This document shows, one piece after another, positions 3,070-14,802 of a DNA stretch of 23,594 nt. Source of the stretch: a virus. Its lineage: Duplodnaviria; Heunggongvirae; Uroviricota; Caudoviricetes. The notes beneath the pieces are model-generated. The model was not told where the DNA came from. It saw only the letters and a program-made list of their open reading frames with translations, and searched no databases. The first letter of the stretch is position 1. The number at the start of each line of letters is the position of its first letter. The position numbers and the translations under genes are program-made. Location of the stretch: IMG/VR virus record IMGVR_UViG_2563366837_000008. One strand, 5' to 3'.

Positions 3070-4923
3070 TTATGATGATGCCGGTGCATTTATCTCCAGC
3101 ACCAGACTTTCTATCTCAACGCCATACGCTGCATTTTTGGTAATATCCGTCAGCGTCAGCGCATTCAGCCCCAGTGTCAGACTGTCTTTTATGACCTGGA
3201 ATGCCGGGCCAGCCACTCCATTCAGTTTCGGAGTAACCGTGGCACTGCCGGCGGTGAACACCAGCTCCAGCGTCTGCCAGTCGTTACTGTAATTCCCGAA
3301 CTCGCCCAACTTTGTGTTTCCTGCTTTCTTGTGATGCATCAGATTCAGTTTGCCGTCTGTGGTCTGGGTGAAGAACGACATCAGGAACGGGTTACCAGTC
3401 CCGGTCATCGCCACGACGTCAGGTAACGCTACATCGGTATACAGATAAATTCCCAGACCGAACTGGTTGTTGGTCAGTGCGCCTGACAGTCGAAACTTAC
3501 AGCTCAGTCTGCCACCCCGTGTCAGCAGGGAGACTGCGTCATCCACCGGGCGCGTCAGGGACCAGGCTTTATTGCTCTGCTTGGTGATCTTAAATACACC
3601 ATCTGACAACTGAATTCCGCCATTCTTAATGCTCCAGCCCTGCGCAGCAGCGTCTCCGGCTGTCGGCAACAGGGAGATTGTGCGTATGGATGCATCTTCA
3701 GACGGCCCCGATGGCGTGTCGCCGCCGGGCGAGGCTTTGATTTCCGGTGCCTTACCACTAATGAAGGCTAAGGTGCGACCGGCTACGTTCAGAATAGCCG
3801 TTGCCATACGATCGGGAATAATGCCACGACGCGCCCATGAGCTGAAATGCGTCGGGCGATTTGATGATACCCAGTTTTTGTTCGTTCGGGATGCCGAACC
3901 GTAATAACCAGACCCGGCAATATCAGGATCTTCTGACGGGTTGTTTGTCGGTGTATTAACTCCGCTACCATCGGTCATAAAGGGAACAAAATAAATCTGC
4001 TGGGATTCTTTACCTTTATATGCACCATATACCACTTCATATTGCGTACCGTGTTCTTGTTTCCACGCGTATGTCGTGTCGCCACAAATCCAGGGGACTG
4101 ATGCCGGACTTCCACCGTGACACTGCGCCGCCAGCCCGGCAAGGTCAGCACGGAACTGCTGTACCATTGCAAGAAATGCTGCTGGCTGCTGGGCGTAACT
4201 GGCATTCGTCATATCGAATTCCCCCTGCATCCAGCATATCGCCAGCAAAACGTTTTTCGGGTTTTTCTGCAATGCTGCCTTCGTGCGGAAAAGCAGATCC
4301 TGATATAACGGCTTACCCACTCCCCAGCGAGCCGAATCCTGACTGGCTCCCGTGGACTCGCTGAATGTCCCCTCCGTGCCCTGGGTGAATGCCGAACCAC
4401 CACGACAGCATGGTACCAGCAGGATCCCCGCATTATTAGGGATATACGGAAGCAGTTTTTTGGCAATATGTAAGCCCTGTCCGACACAGCCGTACTGCCC
4501 TTTGCTCAGGTCAGCCCGGGGATGGTTAATCGTACTCATATCCTGAACATCATGCAGACAATGGTCAGCAGGAATGATGTCGTTAAATACGCATACTTCA
4601 CCACCGGGAGTCACTGTGTTACGACGGGCCAGTTGCTTAATGCGCGGATGGGGCGCATCGTATGAATCCGGAAGCGGAAGCCCTTCACCGTAAGCCATGG
4701 CATTGGATTGCCCGGCCAGTACGATGACGTAGTACCACTCCGGCTCAGTTGCACCACTGACGACCACATCACCTTCTGCTGCAATCGCCTGCATCAGGGT
4801 ATAAGGGGTTATGGCCACCGGACTACCAAACGGCTGCCAGCCCTCCTTCAGTTTTTGTGTCAGTCGTTTCGCAAGGTCTGACGGCGATGCCGCCCTGACC
4901 ACGTCATAGTGTTTAAATGCCAT
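3070..4923 (-). CDS. nanS: NanS-p-like prophage sialate O-acetylesterase (DUF1737 + SASA/SGNH hydrolase + C-terminal domain), 617 aa
   Basis: N-terminus MAFKHYDVVRAASPSDLAKRL...; SGNH-type nucleophile motif LAGQSNAMAYGEG; size and architecture match the esterase encoded just downstream of stx in Stx prophages (from memory). Confidence 0.8.
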   Translation of the reverse strand: MAFKHYDVVRAASPSDLAKRLTQKLKEGWQPFGSPVAITPYTLMQAIAAEGDVVVSGATEPEWYYVIVLAGQSNAMAYGEGLPLPDSYDAPHPRIKQLARRNTVTPGGEVCVFNDIIPADHCLHDVQDMSTINHPRADLSKGQYGCVGQGLHIAKKLLPYIPNNAGILLVPCCRGGSAFTQGTEGTFSESTGASQDSARWGVGKPLYQDLLFRTKAALQKNPKNVLLAICWMQGEFDMTNASYAQQPAAFLAMVQQFRADLAGLAAQCHGGSPASVPWICGDTTYAWKQEHGTQYEVVYGAYKGKESQQIYFVPFMTDGSGVNTPTNNPSEDPDIAGSGYYGSASRTNKNWVSSNRPTHFSSWARRGIIPDRMATAILNVAGRTLAFISGKAPEIKASPGGDTPSGPSEDASIRTISLLPTAGDAAAQGWSIKNGGIQLSDGVFKITKQSNKAWSLTRPVDDAVSLLTRGGRLSCKFRLSGALTNNQFGLGIYLYTDVALPDVVAMTGTGNPFLMSFFTQTTDGKLNLMHHKKAGNTKLGEFGNYSNDWQTLELVFTAGSATVTPKLNGVAGPAFQVIKDSLTLGLNALTLTDITKNAAYGVEIESLVLEINAPASS

Positions 4924-5113
4924 GAATCCTCCCGGGCGGGATAATGTTGTGAGTCAGATAAGGAGCAGGCTGAAGTCCGGAAGTTACAGGACAATGGCAG
5001 AAGGGAGACTACAGCCCGCAATTCGAAAAAGACCGCGCAGTTGCGCAGAGTGATTACTATGGGGTATTATTCGCCAGCTGAAATATTACTTCACGTTTTA
5101 TTGTTTATTCCTT

Positions 5114-5145
5114 GCCGCCCGCGTCTCCCAGCGCGGGCTTTTTTT
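5114..5145 (+). terminator. Rho-independent terminator on the + strand (GCCCGCG-loop-CGCGGGC followed by TTTTTTT)
   Basis: Perfect 7-bp GC stem and a 7-T run seen directly; no + strand gene upstream is apparent. Confidence 0.5.
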
Positions 5146-5149
5146 GTCC

Positions 5150-5176
5150 ATAAGAAAGCCCCTCCGGAGAGGGGCT
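5150..5176 (-). terminator. Rho-independent terminator on the - strand (AGCCCCTC-CGGA-GAGGGGCT followed on the - strand by TTTCTT); 3' end of repeat unit A
   Basis: 8-bp GC stem plus U-rich tract on the - strand; an identical hairpin recurs at 5644..5663 (unit B). Confidence 0.45.
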
Positions 5177-5395
5177 AAAGCCGCGTATCTGTATCATCAT
5201 GCACATGGTGCCGGGTGCCTCCCGGTGAGTTCAGCCCGGTGCCACTAAACCCGCGTCATTCTCGTTTTGATAATCAGAGATTATACCGTCACCAGTCGCC
5301 CCTCCGCTCAGGGGGATTCACCATGCGAAATTTTTTTAACAAATGCCCAGTCTGACAGGCAACTGTCAACTTACTGAATTGTGAGCAACATAGCA
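5153..5395. repeat. Non-coding direct repeat unit A, about 240 bp
   Basis: Shares with unit B these conserved blocks: AAAGCCCCTCCGGAGAGGGGCT, GCATGGTGCCGGGTGCCTCCCGGTGA, GCCCCTCCGC(T/A)CAGGGGGATTCACCATGC, TTTTAACAAA, CTGAATTGTGAG. Conservation is at hairpin/nucleotide level and falls in different reading frames in the two copies. Confidence 0.6.
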
Positions 5396-5421
5396 TTTAA
5401 CGGGGAACCTGTTTTCTGCAG

Positions 5422-5455
5422 TAAAAAGGCCCACCGGAGCGGATGGGCCTGGAAG
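5422..5455 (-). terminator. Terminator-like hairpin on the - strand (AGGCCCA...TGGGCCT followed by TTTTT) between the two repeat units
   Basis: Inverted repeat plus T-run (A-run on +) seen in the sequence. Confidence 0.4.
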
Positions 5456-5637
5456 GATAGCGGTCATGTGATGCCGGTTTCCCGGTAACTCAGCACCGGT
5501 ATCTGAGTCAACGTTTTCTCTACTGGGTCATTTCCGATACGCCCTGCCTGCTGACAGGCTTTCATCACATCTGAAAATATAGCACCCTGACTGATACTGT
5601 AGTACCTAAGGTTCCAGAAACTGTGATGTATCCGGCA

Positions 5638-5865
5638 CAGAAAAGCCCCTCCGGAGAGGGGCTGGAGAGTGGCGCTATGTGCCATTGCATGGTGCCGGGT
5701 GCCTCCCGGTGAATTCAGTACCAGCACCTGAATCCGCGATTATCCCATATACCTACTCGCTGATTGCCCCTCCGCACAGGGGGATTCACCATGCCAGTTT
5801 CTTTTAACAAACTCCCCGCAAACCAGACAACAGTCAACCGCCTGAATTGTGAGACATTTAAAAAA
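5638..5865. repeat. Non-coding direct repeat unit B (paralog of unit A), ending on the - strand in the same GC hairpin plus U-tract (5644..5663)
   Basis: See unit A; roughly 65-70 % identity overall by eye, with near-identical hairpin cores. Confidence 0.6.
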
Positions 5866-5897
5866 AGCCCGCAAAAGCGAGCCAGGGAAAATAAGTG

Positions 5898-5974
5898 TGG
5901 CGCGTTGTACTGGATTCGAACCAGTGACCGATTGCTTAGAAGGCAATTGCTCTGTCCGGCTGAGCTAACAACGC
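5898..5974 (-). tRNA. tRNA-Arg (anticodon UCU), 77 nt
   Basis: Hand-folded cloverleaf: acceptor GCGTTGT/ACAACGC, D stem GCTC/GAGC, anticodon stem ATTGC/GCAAT with loop CTTCTAA, T arm ACTGG-TTCGAAT-CCAGT, discriminator G plus CCA. Confidence 0.8.
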
Positions 5975-5987
5975 AGGATACAGATAA

Positions 5988-6064
5988 TGGACCGCCTTCG
6001 GGGACCCGAACTCCGCGCAACCAGCTTCGAAGGCTGGCGCTCTATCCTGATGAGCTAATGGCGG
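5988..6064 (-). tRNA. tRNA-Arg-like (anticodon UCG), 77 nt, with non-canonical features
   Basis: Anticodon stem CCAGC/GCTGG with loop CTTCGAA and D arm GCTC...GAGC are clean, but my fold has one acceptor-stem mismatch, one T-stem mismatch and T-loop TTCGGGT (G at position 58). Could be functional or degenerate. Confidence 0.5.
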
Positions 6065-6071
6065 TATGTGA

Positions 6072-6147
6072 TGGTGGCCCTTGCTGGATTTGAACCAGCG
6101 ACCTGGCGATTATGAGTCGCTCGCTCTCACCACTGAGCTAAAGGGCC
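6072..6147 (-). tRNA. ileZ: tRNA-Ile2 (anticodon CAU, lysidine-type; reads AUA), 76 nt
   Basis: Near-identical to E. coli ileX by memory (GGCCCTTTAGCTCAGTGGTGAGAGCGAGCGACTCATAATCGCCAGGTCGCTGGTTCAAATCCAGCAAGGGCCACCA); first tRNA downstream of Q, as ileZ is in Stx phages. Confidence 0.8.
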
Positions 6148-6187
6148 GGGAGCCGCATAATAACGACGCGTAATTAATTCTTCAATA

Positions 6188-6595
6188 TCATCCGTTCTGG
6201 CTGACTAAATCCTGTACTTCCCGAACCGTCTGCTCAAAACGTTCAGTCTCCAGCTCAACGCCAATTGCACGACGCCCGAGCGCCAGTGCCGCTTTCACTG
6301 TCGAACCCGACCCCATGAAAAAATCTGCAATCAGGTCACCCGGACGACTGCTAGCGCTGATTATCTGCTGCAGCATTTCTGCCGGTTTTTCGCACGGATG
6401 TTTCCCGGGATAGAACTGCACCGGTTTATGCGTCCAGACATCGGTATACGGCACCTGCGCCGTCACGCCAAAATACCGCCGCAGTCGGCATTCACAACCA
6501 CCAGCGCATTTAACGTTCAGGCACAAAAAAAACCGCTCATCGGCGGGTTTAAGCTGTGTGACGAAGTAACTACTCTTAACAGCATAACCAATTTT
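6188..6595 (-). pseudogene. C-terminal remnant of an N6/N4 DNA methyltransferase (PF01555-like); N-terminal catalytic half missing
   Basis: Contains the AdoMet-binding end (HPCEKPAEMLQQIISASSRPGDLIADFFMGSGSTVKAALALGRRAIGVELE) but no upstream DPPY/DPPW block; the frame is open only about 23 codons upstream of the track start, then hits a stop and AT-rich DNA. Confidence 0.6.
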
Positions 6596-6599
6596 TTAC

Positions 6600-6976
6600 G
6601 TACGTAAACTACTAAATGATATTTGTGAGAATGCCACCGAGTGTTCAAAACACCACCACAAATACATAAGAAAACTTCAACAAATAACCAATAAATAATT
6701 TCGGATGTTATTTTTAGTTTGTTTAAATTAAGCTAAAGAATTATAGACTACTTATAAATAAGTGCCATTAATATAAATTAGCTAATAGATTTATTTTTGT
6801 TCAAACAAGAGCCATGAATAGGATTAGATAGAAAAGGTTCAGATAAAAATAGAGATCTACTTCACAAATTAAATGAGAAACTAAAACTTACATCTTGAAA
6901 TAATCACATTGATTAGATGAATATTTATCGCGCAGTGACATCATTTTTTTATAATAGTTCAAAAAAAGGGCGTACA
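6600..6976 (+). promoter_or_regulatory. Strongly AT-rich upstream region of the porin gene (promoter/regulatory region of a horizontally acquired moron)
   Basis: About 380 bp of markedly AT-rich DNA immediately 5' of the porin start, sharply different from flanking composition; no promoter elements assigned. Confidence 0.3.
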
Positions 6977-8059
6977 ATGAAAAAATTAACAGTGGCAATT
7001 TCTGCTGTAGCTGCATCAGTACTGATGGCGATGTCTGCTCAGGCAGCTGAAATTTATAATAAAGACAGTAACAAGCTGGATCTATACGGGAAAGTTAATG
7101 CCAAGCACTACTTCTCCTCTAATGATGCAGATGATGGTGATACTACTTATGCCCGTCTTGGCTTCAAAGGTGAAACCCAAATCAACGATCAACTGACTGG
7201 GTTCGGTCAGTGGGAATATGACTTCAAAGGCAACCGTGCTGAATCTCAAGGTTCTTCCAAAGACAAAACCCGTCTTGCATTTGCAGGCCTGAAATTTGGT
7301 GATTACGGCTCAATCGATTACGGCCGTAACTTCGGTGTAGCATACGACATCGGTGCGTGGACTGACGTCCTGCCAGAATTCGGTGGTGACACTTGGACTC
7401 AAACCGACGTGTTCATGACTCAACGTGCAACTGGTGTTGCAACTTATCGTAACAACGACTTCTTTGGTCTGGTCGATGGCCTGAACTTTGCTGCTCAGTA
7501 TCAGGGTAAAAATGACCGCACTGACGTAGCTGAAGCCAATGGTGATGGTTTCGGTTTCTCCACTACTTATGAGTATGAAGGATTCGGCGTGGGTGCAACC
7601 TATGCTAAATCAGATCGCACTGACGGTCAGGTCGCCTATGGTAAGAGCAAATTCAATGCCTCCGGCAAAAATGCGGAAGTATGGGCTGCAGGCCTGAAAT
7701 ATGATGCGAACAATATCTATCTGGCTACCACATATTCTGAAACTCAGAATATGACCGTTTTTGGTAATAACCATATTGCAAACAAAGCACAAAACTTTGA
7801 AGCAGTAGCACAATATCAGTTTGACTTCGGTCTGCGCCCATCTGTTGCTTACCTTCAGTCAAAAGGTAAAGACCTTGGTGTTCATGGTGACCGAGACTTA
7901 GTCAAGTATGTCGATGTCGGTGCTACTTACTACTTTAATAAAAACATGTCCACTTTTGTTGATTACAAAATCAACTTAATTGACGATAGTAAGTTTACCA
8001 AAACAGCTGGTATTGATACCGACGACATCGTCGCTGTAGGTCTGGTTTATCAGTTCTAA
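6977..8059 (+). CDS. nmpC: Prophage-encoded general porin of the OmpC/OmpF/PhoE family (NmpC/Lc-like), 360 aa with signal peptide
   Basis: [23 protein letters not shown] signal peptide then [16 protein letters not shown]... and C-terminal ...VAVGLVYQF; AGGG RBS 8 nt upstream. The track ORF starts 20 codons earlier (6917), which I reject. Opposite orientation just downstream of Q, as nmpC in DLP12. Confidence 0.85.
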
Positions 8060-8246: not shown

Positions 8247-8630
8247 TCAATTAGAATTATTAGCAACGATATCCATATCTAACCGGATATCTAATGCCAT
8301 TAACATCCCTTCAATTATGCCCTCAGCCTTCTGTAACCTTTTCCCGATATAACCATCCGAGCAGCAATGCTTACTTGCCAGTGACATGAATGTCATACCA
8401 CATACATAATAATCTACTAATAAATCGTGTAAATCGCTGTTGTTCTTTTTCAGACGGGCCATGCACCCGCAAATGATCATCGCGTCATCGTCACAACATT
8501 GCGGGCGAGATTTTACTTTTGAAGGAATTAATCCCTTAAAACCGGCAGCAATGGACGACCAGGTCACATCCTCATGATTATTTGCCGCCCATGCTCCCCA
8601 GCGTTCGAGAACCATCTGAATATCACGCAT
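8247..8630 (-). CDS. Q: Late-gene antiterminator Q (small PF06530-type, QuuD/QuuQ-like), 127 aa
   Basis: [35 protein letters not shown]...[16 protein letters not shown]; the track ORF starts at an upstream TTG (8645), the ATG at 8630 is the likely start; followed by a terminator-bounded leader, then late genes. Confidence 0.75.
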
Positions 8631-8647
8631 CAACTTTCTCCACAAAA

Positions 8648-13951: not shown

Positions 13952-14802
13952 GGGCGAACCTCCTTGTCAGAACCATTCAGCCTGGAATCAACAAGTGCAG
14001 CGCCAAAAACAGCATCACCAACACGGTCGTACAGTTTGCTAGCCAGCGGAGATTCAACGGCCTTAAGCATTGGATAAAGCTGGCTTGTCCAGATTTGATG
14101 GATTTCACGCAAATGCAGGTATACGCCTCTGGCGTTTCGTGCGACAGCTGACATATCAGACGCATCGGCACCTGATAAACTCTTCTCCATCAGGTTAAAG
14201 GCGTTGATGTATGCCTCTTTGAACCGGGCAGCACGTTTACCAGTGAAGCCCATGGCAAGGAACGCGAAGCCATCGCGGGTGATTTGATAGCAAGGTAGTT
14301 TGCGGCCTGATGCGTCGGTGTATTCACTTAACACAAAATTGTGTTCAGTAAATTCAGCGGAACATTCGAGGTTTCTAATTCTATCTAAAACCCGCTCATG
14401 CCGTTTAGTAAAGTAATTAGCTACTGCAAGAGATGTGGTGACAACGCGACCATTGATAATCGTGATTTCAGGGTGAGATTGGGTTGGGAGAGTAGTCATG
14501 GTGACAGCCCCTATGTTGAATTCAATGAACTCACCACCAAGGCTTTCCACGACCATATAGGTGGTGAGACGTACAGGGGTGGAAATACCGGTCAACATAG
14601 AACCCGGCCCAACCGAAGTTGGCCCTGCACGCCCCACCATAATTTGGGCGTAACGATGCTCATGACACGAAAAAACCGCATGAGCGCGGTTGTGCTCTAT
14701 ATTGAATTTCGGGTTTCCACGCCCGGCACCCGCTTTATAAGGTGCCTGAGCAGTGTAACGTCCCGGAATTGCAGAATCAATATTTGGTCTTGAAATGATC
14801 AT
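13948..14802 (-). CDS. Phage regulatory protein Rha family (Phage_pRha domain in the C-terminal half); start uncertain, 284 aa from 14802 or 183 aa from 14499
   Basis: Rha-like block VVTTSLAVANYFTKRHERVLDRIRNL...YTDASGRKLPCYQITRDGFAFLAMGFTGKRAARFKEAYINAFNLME; the internal ATG at 14499 has a strong AGGGG RBS, the ATG at 14802 has none. Confidence 0.7.
   Translation of the reverse strand: MIISRPNIDSAIPGRYTAQAPYKAGAGRGNPKFNIEHNRAHAVFSCHEHRYAQIMVGRAGPTSVGPGSMLTGISTPVRLTTYMVVESLGGEFIEFNIGAVTMTTLPTQSHPEITIINGRVVTTSLAVANYFTKRHERVLDRIRNLECSAEFTEHNFVLSEYTDASGRKLPCYQITRDGFAFLAMGFTGKRAARFKEAYINAFNLMEKSLSGADASDMSAVARNARGVYLHLREIHQIWTSQLYPMLKAVESPLASKLYDRVGDAVFGAALVDSRLNGSDKEVRP

Follow-up and report, generated by a model that had tools for sequence, protein, structure and literature searches.

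We analysed a 23,594-nt stretch of virus DNA (IMG/VR record IMGVR_UViG_2563366837_000008, here called the window), all of which is a DLP12-like lambdoid prophage of Escherichia coli, and focused on the region between a cluster of transfer RNA (tRNA) genes and a sialate esterase gene. This region probably holds three small RNA (sRNA) genes of the STnc100 / EcOnc05-06-27 / PasD superfamily, which lie head to tail on the minus strand in the order B, M, A, with predicted RNAs of ~158 nt (5637..5794), ~150 nt (5421..5570) and ~177 nt (5150..5326), respectively. Units A and B belong to a family that is already known from Rfam and from the Hfq-bound RNAs EcOnc05, EcOnc06 and EcOnc27, and that is related to PasD. 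Against the Rfam model RF02076 ('Gammaproteobacterial sRNA STnc100'), which has a curated gathering threshold of 47 bits, unit A (5146-5355) scores 165.4 bits with E=9e-38 and unit B (5633-5823) scores 136.3 bits with E=3e-30, both on the minus strand and over model positions 1-206. The initial annotation of this DNA had described two paralogous units here as candidate sRNA genes and had named a covariance-model search as a check; these matches, together with the identity of unit B to a verified sRNA, bear out that description. The present analysis refines a known family, to which it adds the paralogue M, corrected promoters and RNA lengths, a convergent partner RNA, a design of conserved core and swappable tail, and a covarying pseudoknot.

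Unit B is known in its exact sequence. From 65 nt upstream of P1, the helix that closes its core, through the terminator stem, it is base-for-base the locus downstream of ileZ-argN-argO in the Sakai prophage Sp4, and the northern probe for EcOnc05 (Tree et al. 2014, PMC4104026) aligns to 5731-5765 with 0 mismatches. EcOnc05 was identified in E. coli O157:H7 Sakai by a peak in Hfq crosslinking and analysis of cDNA (CRAC) and by a northern band, and is among the most strongly Hfq-crosslinked unannotated RNAs of that study (PMC4104026). EcOnc06, the convergent partner of AgvB, and EcOnc27 (=sRNA103), encoded just downstream of stx2B, are also Hfq-bound, and EcOnc27 has been seen on northerns; both have the same core as the STnc100 units with other 3' tails. 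In strain EDL933 there are 11 STnc100 copies, most of them expressed and one confirmed by northern (PMC5331693). Identity of the units with PasA, PasB, PasC, PasD, EcOnc27 or EcOnc13 was rejected, the corresponding probe sequences being absent from the window; the PasD probe has no match there at up to 6 mismatches. The models of AsxR and AgvB (RF02703 and RF02702) gave no match in 4900-5900 at E<=10.

The paralogy of A and B noted in the initial annotation is evident from a repeat search, which found an 88-nt block at 80% identity (5298-5385 and 5766-5853), a 31-nt block at 97% identity (5204-5234 and 5688-5718) and an identical 22-nt block (5155-5176 and 5642-5663), and from a global alignment with 70.6% identity over 221 aligned columns, 19 of them gapped. 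The internal hairpin CCGGGAGGCACCCGG that had been singled out as conserved is present in A (5211-5225) and in B (5695-5709). These repeats also bear on whether the units could be decayed fragments of a protein-coding gene or genes for small proteins. Such a reading could point to the automated calls of the RefSeq Prokaryotic Genome Annotation Pipeline (PGAP), which place a partial 'hypothetical protein' pseudogene antisense to unit B (5679-5804 and its equivalent, plus strand) in strains CE10 and U1, to the open reading frames (ORFs) of 42-58 codons in the region, and to the few EDL933 STnc100 copies with ribosome coverage >1. Two of the conserved blocks, however, are offset by 468 and 484 nt between the copies, a relative shift of 16 nt that is not a multiple of three and leaves A and B no common frame; insert lengths vary freely among relatives (cores of 91-135 nt), substitutions in the stems are compensatory, ribosome coverage is low in most EDL933 copies, and a Pfam search of the ORFs within the units returned nothing significant, its best match (E=0.052) failing the cut-off. 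We therefore rejected a coding origin, to which we give next to no credence, and the view that conservation here is structural is upheld. Similar spurious ORFs overlap PasD2 in strain E2348/69 and the PasD-like RNA in Sakai (ECs_0817). None of the units A, M and B is annotated as an sRNA in the records examined.

The count of two units does not stand, because a third, unit M, lies between A and B (5421-5594). Against RF02076 it reaches 30.1 bits (E=1.7e-4), which is under the 47-bit threshold, so that by the Rfam criterion M is not a member. An independent covariance model of the core was built from 45 diverse relatives with M left out. Across the whole window this model finds only A (86.7 bits), B (86.0 bits) and M (27.2 bits) to be significant, with M at E=1.8e-6 and the next match at E=0.017. 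Unit M has retained the closing helix P1 through three compensatory pair changes, has different sequences in the hairpin H1 and the helix P3, and carries a GAAA loop on P4; it is a diverged paralogue of A and B. It occurs, always unannotated, in 673 of 5426 complete E. coli genomes (~12%), in two alleles that are ~100% and ~85-86% identical to the copy here (the latter called M2), and the full B-M-A arrangement is found in 352 genomes. On one phage contig a roughly 85%-diverged array has retained promoters, cores and terminators, with different spacers and tails and a B-type unit at the third position.

The core, which occupies 105-124 nt in the units of the window, consists of P1 enclosing H1, a variable insert, a pseudoknot, P3 and P4. 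In unit A (5203-5326) P1 pairs 5319-5326 with 5203-5210, H1 lies at 5299-5315, the pseudoknot joins 5290-5295 to 5236-5241, P3 pairs 5245-5252 with 5227-5234, and P4 spans 5211-5225. The corresponding elements of unit B (5687-5794) are P1 at 5787-5794 with 5687-5694, H1 at 5767-5783, the pseudoknot at 5758-5764 with 5720-5726, P3 at 5728-5735 with 5711-5718 and P4 at 5695-5709; those of unit M (5466-5570) are P1 at 5563-5570 with 5466-5473, H1 at 5546-5559, the pseudoknot at 5534-5540 with 5493-5499, P3 at 5503-5509 with 5487-5493 and P4, with its GAAA loop, at 5474-5485. Over 33 distinct cores the 26 nested pairs are 97.2% paired, against 41-45% in slid controls, and both sides differ in 11 of these 26 pairs, where shuffles give 4.0 +/- 1.4; this comparison supplies the compensatory changes that the initial annotation had proposed to look for. 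Single-sequence folding z-scores are modest (-1.4 to -2.3) and prove little alone, so that covariation carries the structural argument. In an informal comparison by eye with consensus features, the core fits none of the hammerhead, hepatitis delta virus-like or tRNA-like folds.

The pseudoknot forms between 6-9 nt that follow H1 and the loop of P3, to which they are complementary, giving an H-type arrangement. Loop columns are out of register in MAFFT alignments, and the helix was accordingly judged by permutation of partners. For 103 distinct combinations of segment and loop, pairing with the own partner averages 6.17 bp and -8.27 kcal/mol, against 4.30 bp and -4.29 kcal/mol for non-self partners; the observed mean is reached in none of 5000 permutations, and the helix takes up 72% of the loop on average. 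The interaction is kept with three different sequences in the window, CUGGUG:CACCGG in A, AUCAGCG:UGCUGGU in B and GUAUCGG:CCGGUGC in M. The structure line of the Rfam STnc100 consensus does not contain this helix.

Upstream of the core lies a conserved element with a -35 hexamer TTGyCT, an 18-nt spacer and an extended -10 TGtTAAAAA/G, which ends 6 nt ahead of P1. It would provide sigma-70 promoters for B (5801..5830; -35 TTGTCT at 5825-5830 and extended -10 TGtTAAAAG at 5801-5809) and for A (5333..5362; -35 TTGCCT at 5357-5362 and extended -10 TGtTAAAAA at 5333-5341), both on the minus strand and with the 18-nt spacer; for M the predicted extended -10 is TGcTATATT (5576..5584, minus strand), which is kept in the M2 allele while its flanks diverge. 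Among copies other than M the -35 is TTGTCT, TTGCCT, TTGACT or TTGATT and the -10 is TGtTAAAAA/G or TAtTAAAAA; hexamers and spacing are fixed across copies and the spacer sequences diverge. Across many genera, 66 dissimilar upstream regions show a -10-like signal whose peak falls 4-7 nt before P1; often TTGACx stands 17 nt further upstream. RNA sequencing (RNA-seq) has mapped the 5' end of PasD2, which in the alignment corresponds to the G of GCAUGGUG with which the closing helix begins, and the promoter geometry of unit B is that found before this mapped end. On the strength of this alignment and of the conserved -10 and -35 signals before P1, we put the starts at about 5326 for A, 5570 for M and 5794 for B, which would give RNAs of ~177, 150 and 158 nt. 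This placement suggests that the first 29 positions of the Rfam STnc100 model are promoter DNA. A scan for sigma-70 promoters found none on the minus strand within the units, because the scanner requires T at the last -10 position and the conserved element reads TAAAAA/G.

The strings previously proposed as promoters, TATAAT in A (5283-5288) and TATATG/GATAAT in B (5741-5754), are present as described. As promoters we rejected them: they sit inside the transcribed, non-conserved insert, of which there are 14 classes, in a stretch that hybridises with the EcOnc05 northern probe. The proposed RNA length of 100-130 nt likewise gives way to an expected ~150-180 nt, or up to ~220 nt on published northerns. 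Some 50-60 nt upstream of the predicted starts there is a further conserved box, CTCACAATTC (TCACAGTTTC in M), at 5376-5385, 5844-5853 and 5617-5626 on the minus strand, which is also kept in the diverged array of locus L022. It could serve as a regulator site or as a second promoter, or belong to a longer transcript, which would agree with the ~222-nt band of EcOnc05. An informal comparison by eye with consensus features gave no fit to a CRP site at this box.

Each unit ends at its 3' side in an intrinsic terminator on the minus strand. In A (5157-5176, U run 5150-5156) and B (5644-5663, U run 5637-5643) this is the same hairpin, AGCCCCTC-TCCG-GAGGGGCT, with an 8 bp stem and a 4-nt loop, followed by UUUCUUAU in A and UUUUCUGU in B, as had been noted before; the U runs are short and interrupted. 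The terminator of M (5427-5450) is followed by UUUUU. Between core and terminator lie the single-stranded 3' tails of A (5177-5202), B (5664-5686) and M (5451-5465), all on the minus strand; that of B contains CACUCUCC and that of M is AUCCUUCC, both of them CU-rich runs that resemble anti-Shine-Dalgarno sequences. A terminator scan of 4850-6250 found 10 terminator-like sites, against 1.3 +/- 1.2 in shuffles.

The array occupies the 'moron' site downstream of the late promoter PR', on the route of Q-modified polymerase. Read along the minus strand, the genes are the antiterminator gene QuuD (8247-8645), an opposite-strand porin gene, a truncated DNA methyltransferase gene, three tRNA genes for tRNA-Ile2 (CAU), tRNA-Arg (UCG) and tRNA-Arg (UCU) (6147-5898), the array, the SASA-family sialate esterase gene (4923-3070), holin, lysozyme and a lysis protein; the terminator of the tRNA cluster (5866..5883, minus strand) forms the upstream border of the array. 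This order of Q, tRNAs, units, esterase and holin agrees with the earlier remark that the units lie in the late transcript path. Five minus-strand terminator-like sites in a row (5883-5866, 5663-5644, 5450-5427, 5176-5157 and 5048-5033, against 1.3 expected) in such a path might indicate that the units are cis-acting terminators or insulators, which in the lysogen would stop transcription from the tRNA promoters or leaky transcription from PR' before it enters the esterase and lysis genes, with the RNAs as by-products. We regard this as highly improbable, since a terminator needs ~30 nt and not a conserved, pseudoknotted core of 105-124 nt with a promoter of its own. Moreover, 87% of arrays in related phage contigs consist of a single unit, and the family is also found outside late operons, on a Pantoea plasmid and beside chromosomal genes; the roles of insulator and sRNA are, in any case, not mutually exclusive.

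Facing unit A on the plus strand is a convergent partner RNA (5037..5145), with a terminator at 5117-5138 followed by TTTTTTT, that is homologous to EcOnc08/21/42 of Sakai Sp4 and to the sRNA candidate E2348C_1409.E2348C_1408.IGR of enteropathogenic E. coli (EPEC). Judged from its sequence, it makes up with unit A a convergent sRNA pair of the kind described for lambdoid moron sites. EcOnc08/21/42 runs at ~271 nt on northerns in Sakai; if the plus-strand RNA were as long, it would start in or near the esterase start codon (4923) and would be antisense to the 5' untranslated region (UTR) of the esterase mRNA. A terminator-like hairpin at 5033-5048, CTGCGCAACTGCGCGG plus TCTTTTT, lies in this 5' UTR on the esterase strand; it could act as an attenuator or mark where another short RNA ends. 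The position of a structured, conserved domain followed by a terminator upstream of a gene, together with the known occurrence of some riboswitches in tandem, raises the question of a riboswitch-like leader that controls the esterase gene. We judge this extremely improbable: each unit has its own promoter, the convergent sRNA and a further terminator intervene between unit A and the esterase gene, and among relatives the downstream genes differ widely and the terminator and the sequence preceding it are exchanged freely, with no conserved alternative pairing between core and terminator. A cis-regulatory role on a consistent downstream gene was likewise rejected, as the genes found downstream encode unrelated MarR, KdgM porin, DUF1317, DUF4055 and no-family proteins.

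This free exchange is a general property of the family, as seen in a comparison of ~120 relatives (119 phage-borne units). Downstream of P1 the copies are unrelated in sequence until the terminator, and the 119 phage-borne units show about 14 classes of tail and 14 of insert, combined as in a mosaic; an A-type core, for example, is found with a B-type tail, and eight different tails go with one insert class. Among related IMG/VR contigs, 73 of the 84 fully contained loci are a single unit and 6 have the form unit-M-unit. The core is spread across the Enterobacterales, in Klebsiella, Kosakonia, Enterobacter, Raoultella, Salmonella diarizonae, Superficieibacter, Pantoea, Erwinia and Rahnella; loci outside E. 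coli include L178 (6323-7018), L179 (894-2010), L232 (3717-5512) and L188, L203 and L219. Superficieibacter electus and a Pantoea plasmid have tandem arrays of 3-4 cores, and a KdgM-family porin gene is found downstream of the core in Klebsiella, Kosakonia and Enterobacter. Some copies have no terminator and continue into unrelated ORFs. A subclass with a first hairpin of the GCGGCU type is mostly missed at the Rfam threshold. In locus L232 the core is interleaved with tRNA genes; a functional link to adjacent tRNA genes was rejected as incidental, only 7 of 60 relatives from other genera having a tRNA gene within the 8-kb locus.

By analogy with the verified relatives, in which Hfq crosslinks and chimeras from the sequencing of RNAs ligated to their interaction partners (RIL-seq) concentrate on the 3' tail and terminator, the most likely function of the units is Hfq-dependent base pairing through the variable 3' tail. 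We propose that A, M and B would each be transcribed in the lysogen from their own sigma-70 extended -10 promoter, with the start at the first base of P1, and that the RNAs would be bound by Hfq through the 3' tail and terminator. The tail of each would then pair with chromosomal and accessory mRNAs, giving each paralogue a separate set of targets, and the 5' core, with the 5' end buried in P1, would be a structural module that all three have in common, in the simplest case a fold that protects or stabilises the RNA. In lytic growth, the three terminators would be read through by Q-modified polymerase.

Several observations weigh against this proposal. The evidence of expression comes from EcOnc05, which has the sequence of B, and from relatives, not from A, M or this strain. 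Published northern sizes (~222 nt for EcOnc05 and ~235/247 nt for EcOnc27; PMC4104026) are 60-70 nt longer than the predicted RNAs, so that the 5' or 3' ends may differ. The U tracts (UUUCUUAU, UUUUCUGU and UUUUUAC) are short and interrupted, and not ideal for Hfq; PasD levels in RNA-seq of an hfq deletion show no fall (log2 fold change about 0 to +0.5). No STnc100-type RNA has a proven direct target, the effects on fimZ and espA and the complementarity to stxB being indirect or in silico. Finally, conservation is much stronger in the core than in the presumed seed, opposite to what is typical of an Hfq-dependent sRNA, and the core may carry the main function.

This last point leads to a different view of the units, in which the conserved, pseudoknotted 5' core is the functional part, binding a protein or small ligand that it sequesters, recruits or senses, and the 3' stretch is a spacer or a cargo ORF. 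From Escherichia to Pantoea, Erwinia and Rahnella the core hardly varies, whereas the tails are unrelated; the stems and the pseudoknot of the core covary, and unpaired nucleotides outside the search anchor are invariant (GAAU following P1, GCG within the H1 loop and CGCG ahead of P3); the copies without a terminator that run into ORFs (MarR and small phage proteins, and with the KdgM porin gene downstream) would also fit. We nevertheless consider this view unlikely. It has no known binding partner, the Hfq crosslinks and RIL-seq chimeras of the verified relatives are concentrated on the tail and terminator, and many tails are CU-rich and anti-Shine-Dalgarno-like, as seeds would be. Conservation is equally expected of a stabilising 5' fold, and the apparent invariance stems in part from the search patterns used to gather relatives. 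As a tentative possibility, the STnc100 core might be a self-contained pseudoknotted domain that binds a specific host or phage factor or a ligand, and that, along with its promoter, is joined to outputs that can be interchanged, through recombination at its 3' edge. If so, B-M-A would represent one sensor or scaffold in three versions with three outputs, and the pseudoknot would count as a new addition to the structure and the diverged M class as one to the family. Hfq-dependent pairing through the tail remains our preferred reading of the array.

The prophage itself is widely represented. Compared with strains U1 and NMBU_W05E18, the window has 100% identity across 97% of its length, and the 801 bp around the array are identical in CE10, APEC O18 and many other strains. 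Between the Q gene and the tRNAs lies a porin gene of the OmpC/NmpC type (6917-8059, plus strand), adjoined by the truncated DNA methyltransferase gene (6188-6526, minus strand), a layout known from the DLP12 prophage; as the porin gene is on the opposite strand, the late transcript must cross it antisense. An insertion of ~705-711 bp at 2250-2954, absent from the otherwise identical U1 prophage, is an IS200 element; its minus-strand ORF (2353-2862) belongs by a match at 5e-38 to PF01797, the Y1 transposase family. The element has the esterase gene on one side and the holin gene on the other and runs in the direction of the late operon, and its terminal hairpin could be polar on lysis-gene expression. 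An Rfam match to STnc490 (2821-2944) falls where the insertion starts and for that reason probably represents the IS200 leader RNA. Further Rfam matches to the C4 antisense RNA (14557-14644, minus strand, 82 bits) and isrK (14669-14745, minus strand, 62 bits) adjoin genes for Rha-family regulators and make up a P1/P7-type antisense immunity module within a lambdoid prophage.

For annotation, these results mean that the region should be described as three STnc100-family sRNA genes with a convergent partner sRNA in place of a 'hypothetical protein' pseudogene, and that M, present in about one complete E. coli genome in eight, is annotated nowhere and escapes the Rfam threshold. Relatives in this family flank Shiga toxin genes, and variants there have recently been linked to clinical outcome (PMC12711010). 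The family has no established direct target or mechanism; the probable start at P1, the covarying pseudoknot of the core and the tails swapped between cores provide handles for experiments.

The closest known system is EcOnc05 in Sakai Sp4, which, like the array here, has tRNA-Ile/Arg/Arg genes upstream, a convergent RNA of the EcOnc08/21/42 type and a SASA esterase gene downstream. Sp4 differs in having only one unit, which directly adjoins the sequence found after unit A here, so that the window adds M and A; this difference is consistent with unequal recombination at the common 22-nt terminator. STnc100, first listed in Salmonella (Rfam RF02076), and EcOnc27 resemble the units in core fold and in their position downstream of PR' in lambdoid phages, whereas EcOnc27 has another 3' tail and its probe sequence is not in the window, and the Rfam STnc100 model has 29 nt of probable promoter at its 5' end and is without the pseudoknot. 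PasD1 and PasD2 of EPEC E2348/69 (the EcOnc13 type) are RNAs of 172-173 nt with Hfq-dependent stability, seen by RIL-seq and northern, whose RIL-seq chimeras map to the last ~50 nt (Pearl Mizrahi et al. 2021, PMC8550237); common ancestry of PasD and STnc100 has recently been proposed (Zhu, Shabalina & Storz 2026, bioRxiv 10.64898/2026.05.13.724894). They are distant structural relatives of the units, with the same 5' start GCAUGGUGAAUCC, the same promoter geometry, a position upstream of an esterase gene and a seed just before the terminator, and PasD2 scores 41 bits against the STnc100 model. They differ in the loss of P4, in tail and terminator, and in that their copies are reported as dispersed, not tandem. 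Near-identity to PasD that would include its UGUGAG seed was not found, the alignment with PasD2 sharing only the 5' start and scattered core positions. AsxR and AgvB (RF02703 and RF02702) are also found in this moron site, where they form one half of a convergent pair, of which A, B and M represent the other member; they differ in being 51-60 nt long, with a conserved 3' part of ~42 nt and a variable 5' end. OmrA/OmrB, PrrF1/PrrF2 and the Qrr RNAs are encoded by paralogous genes that lie side by side, and every gene has a promoter and a terminator of its own. In these systems the seed is the conserved, common part, whereas in B-M-A it is the 5' core that is conserved and the presumed seeds that differ.

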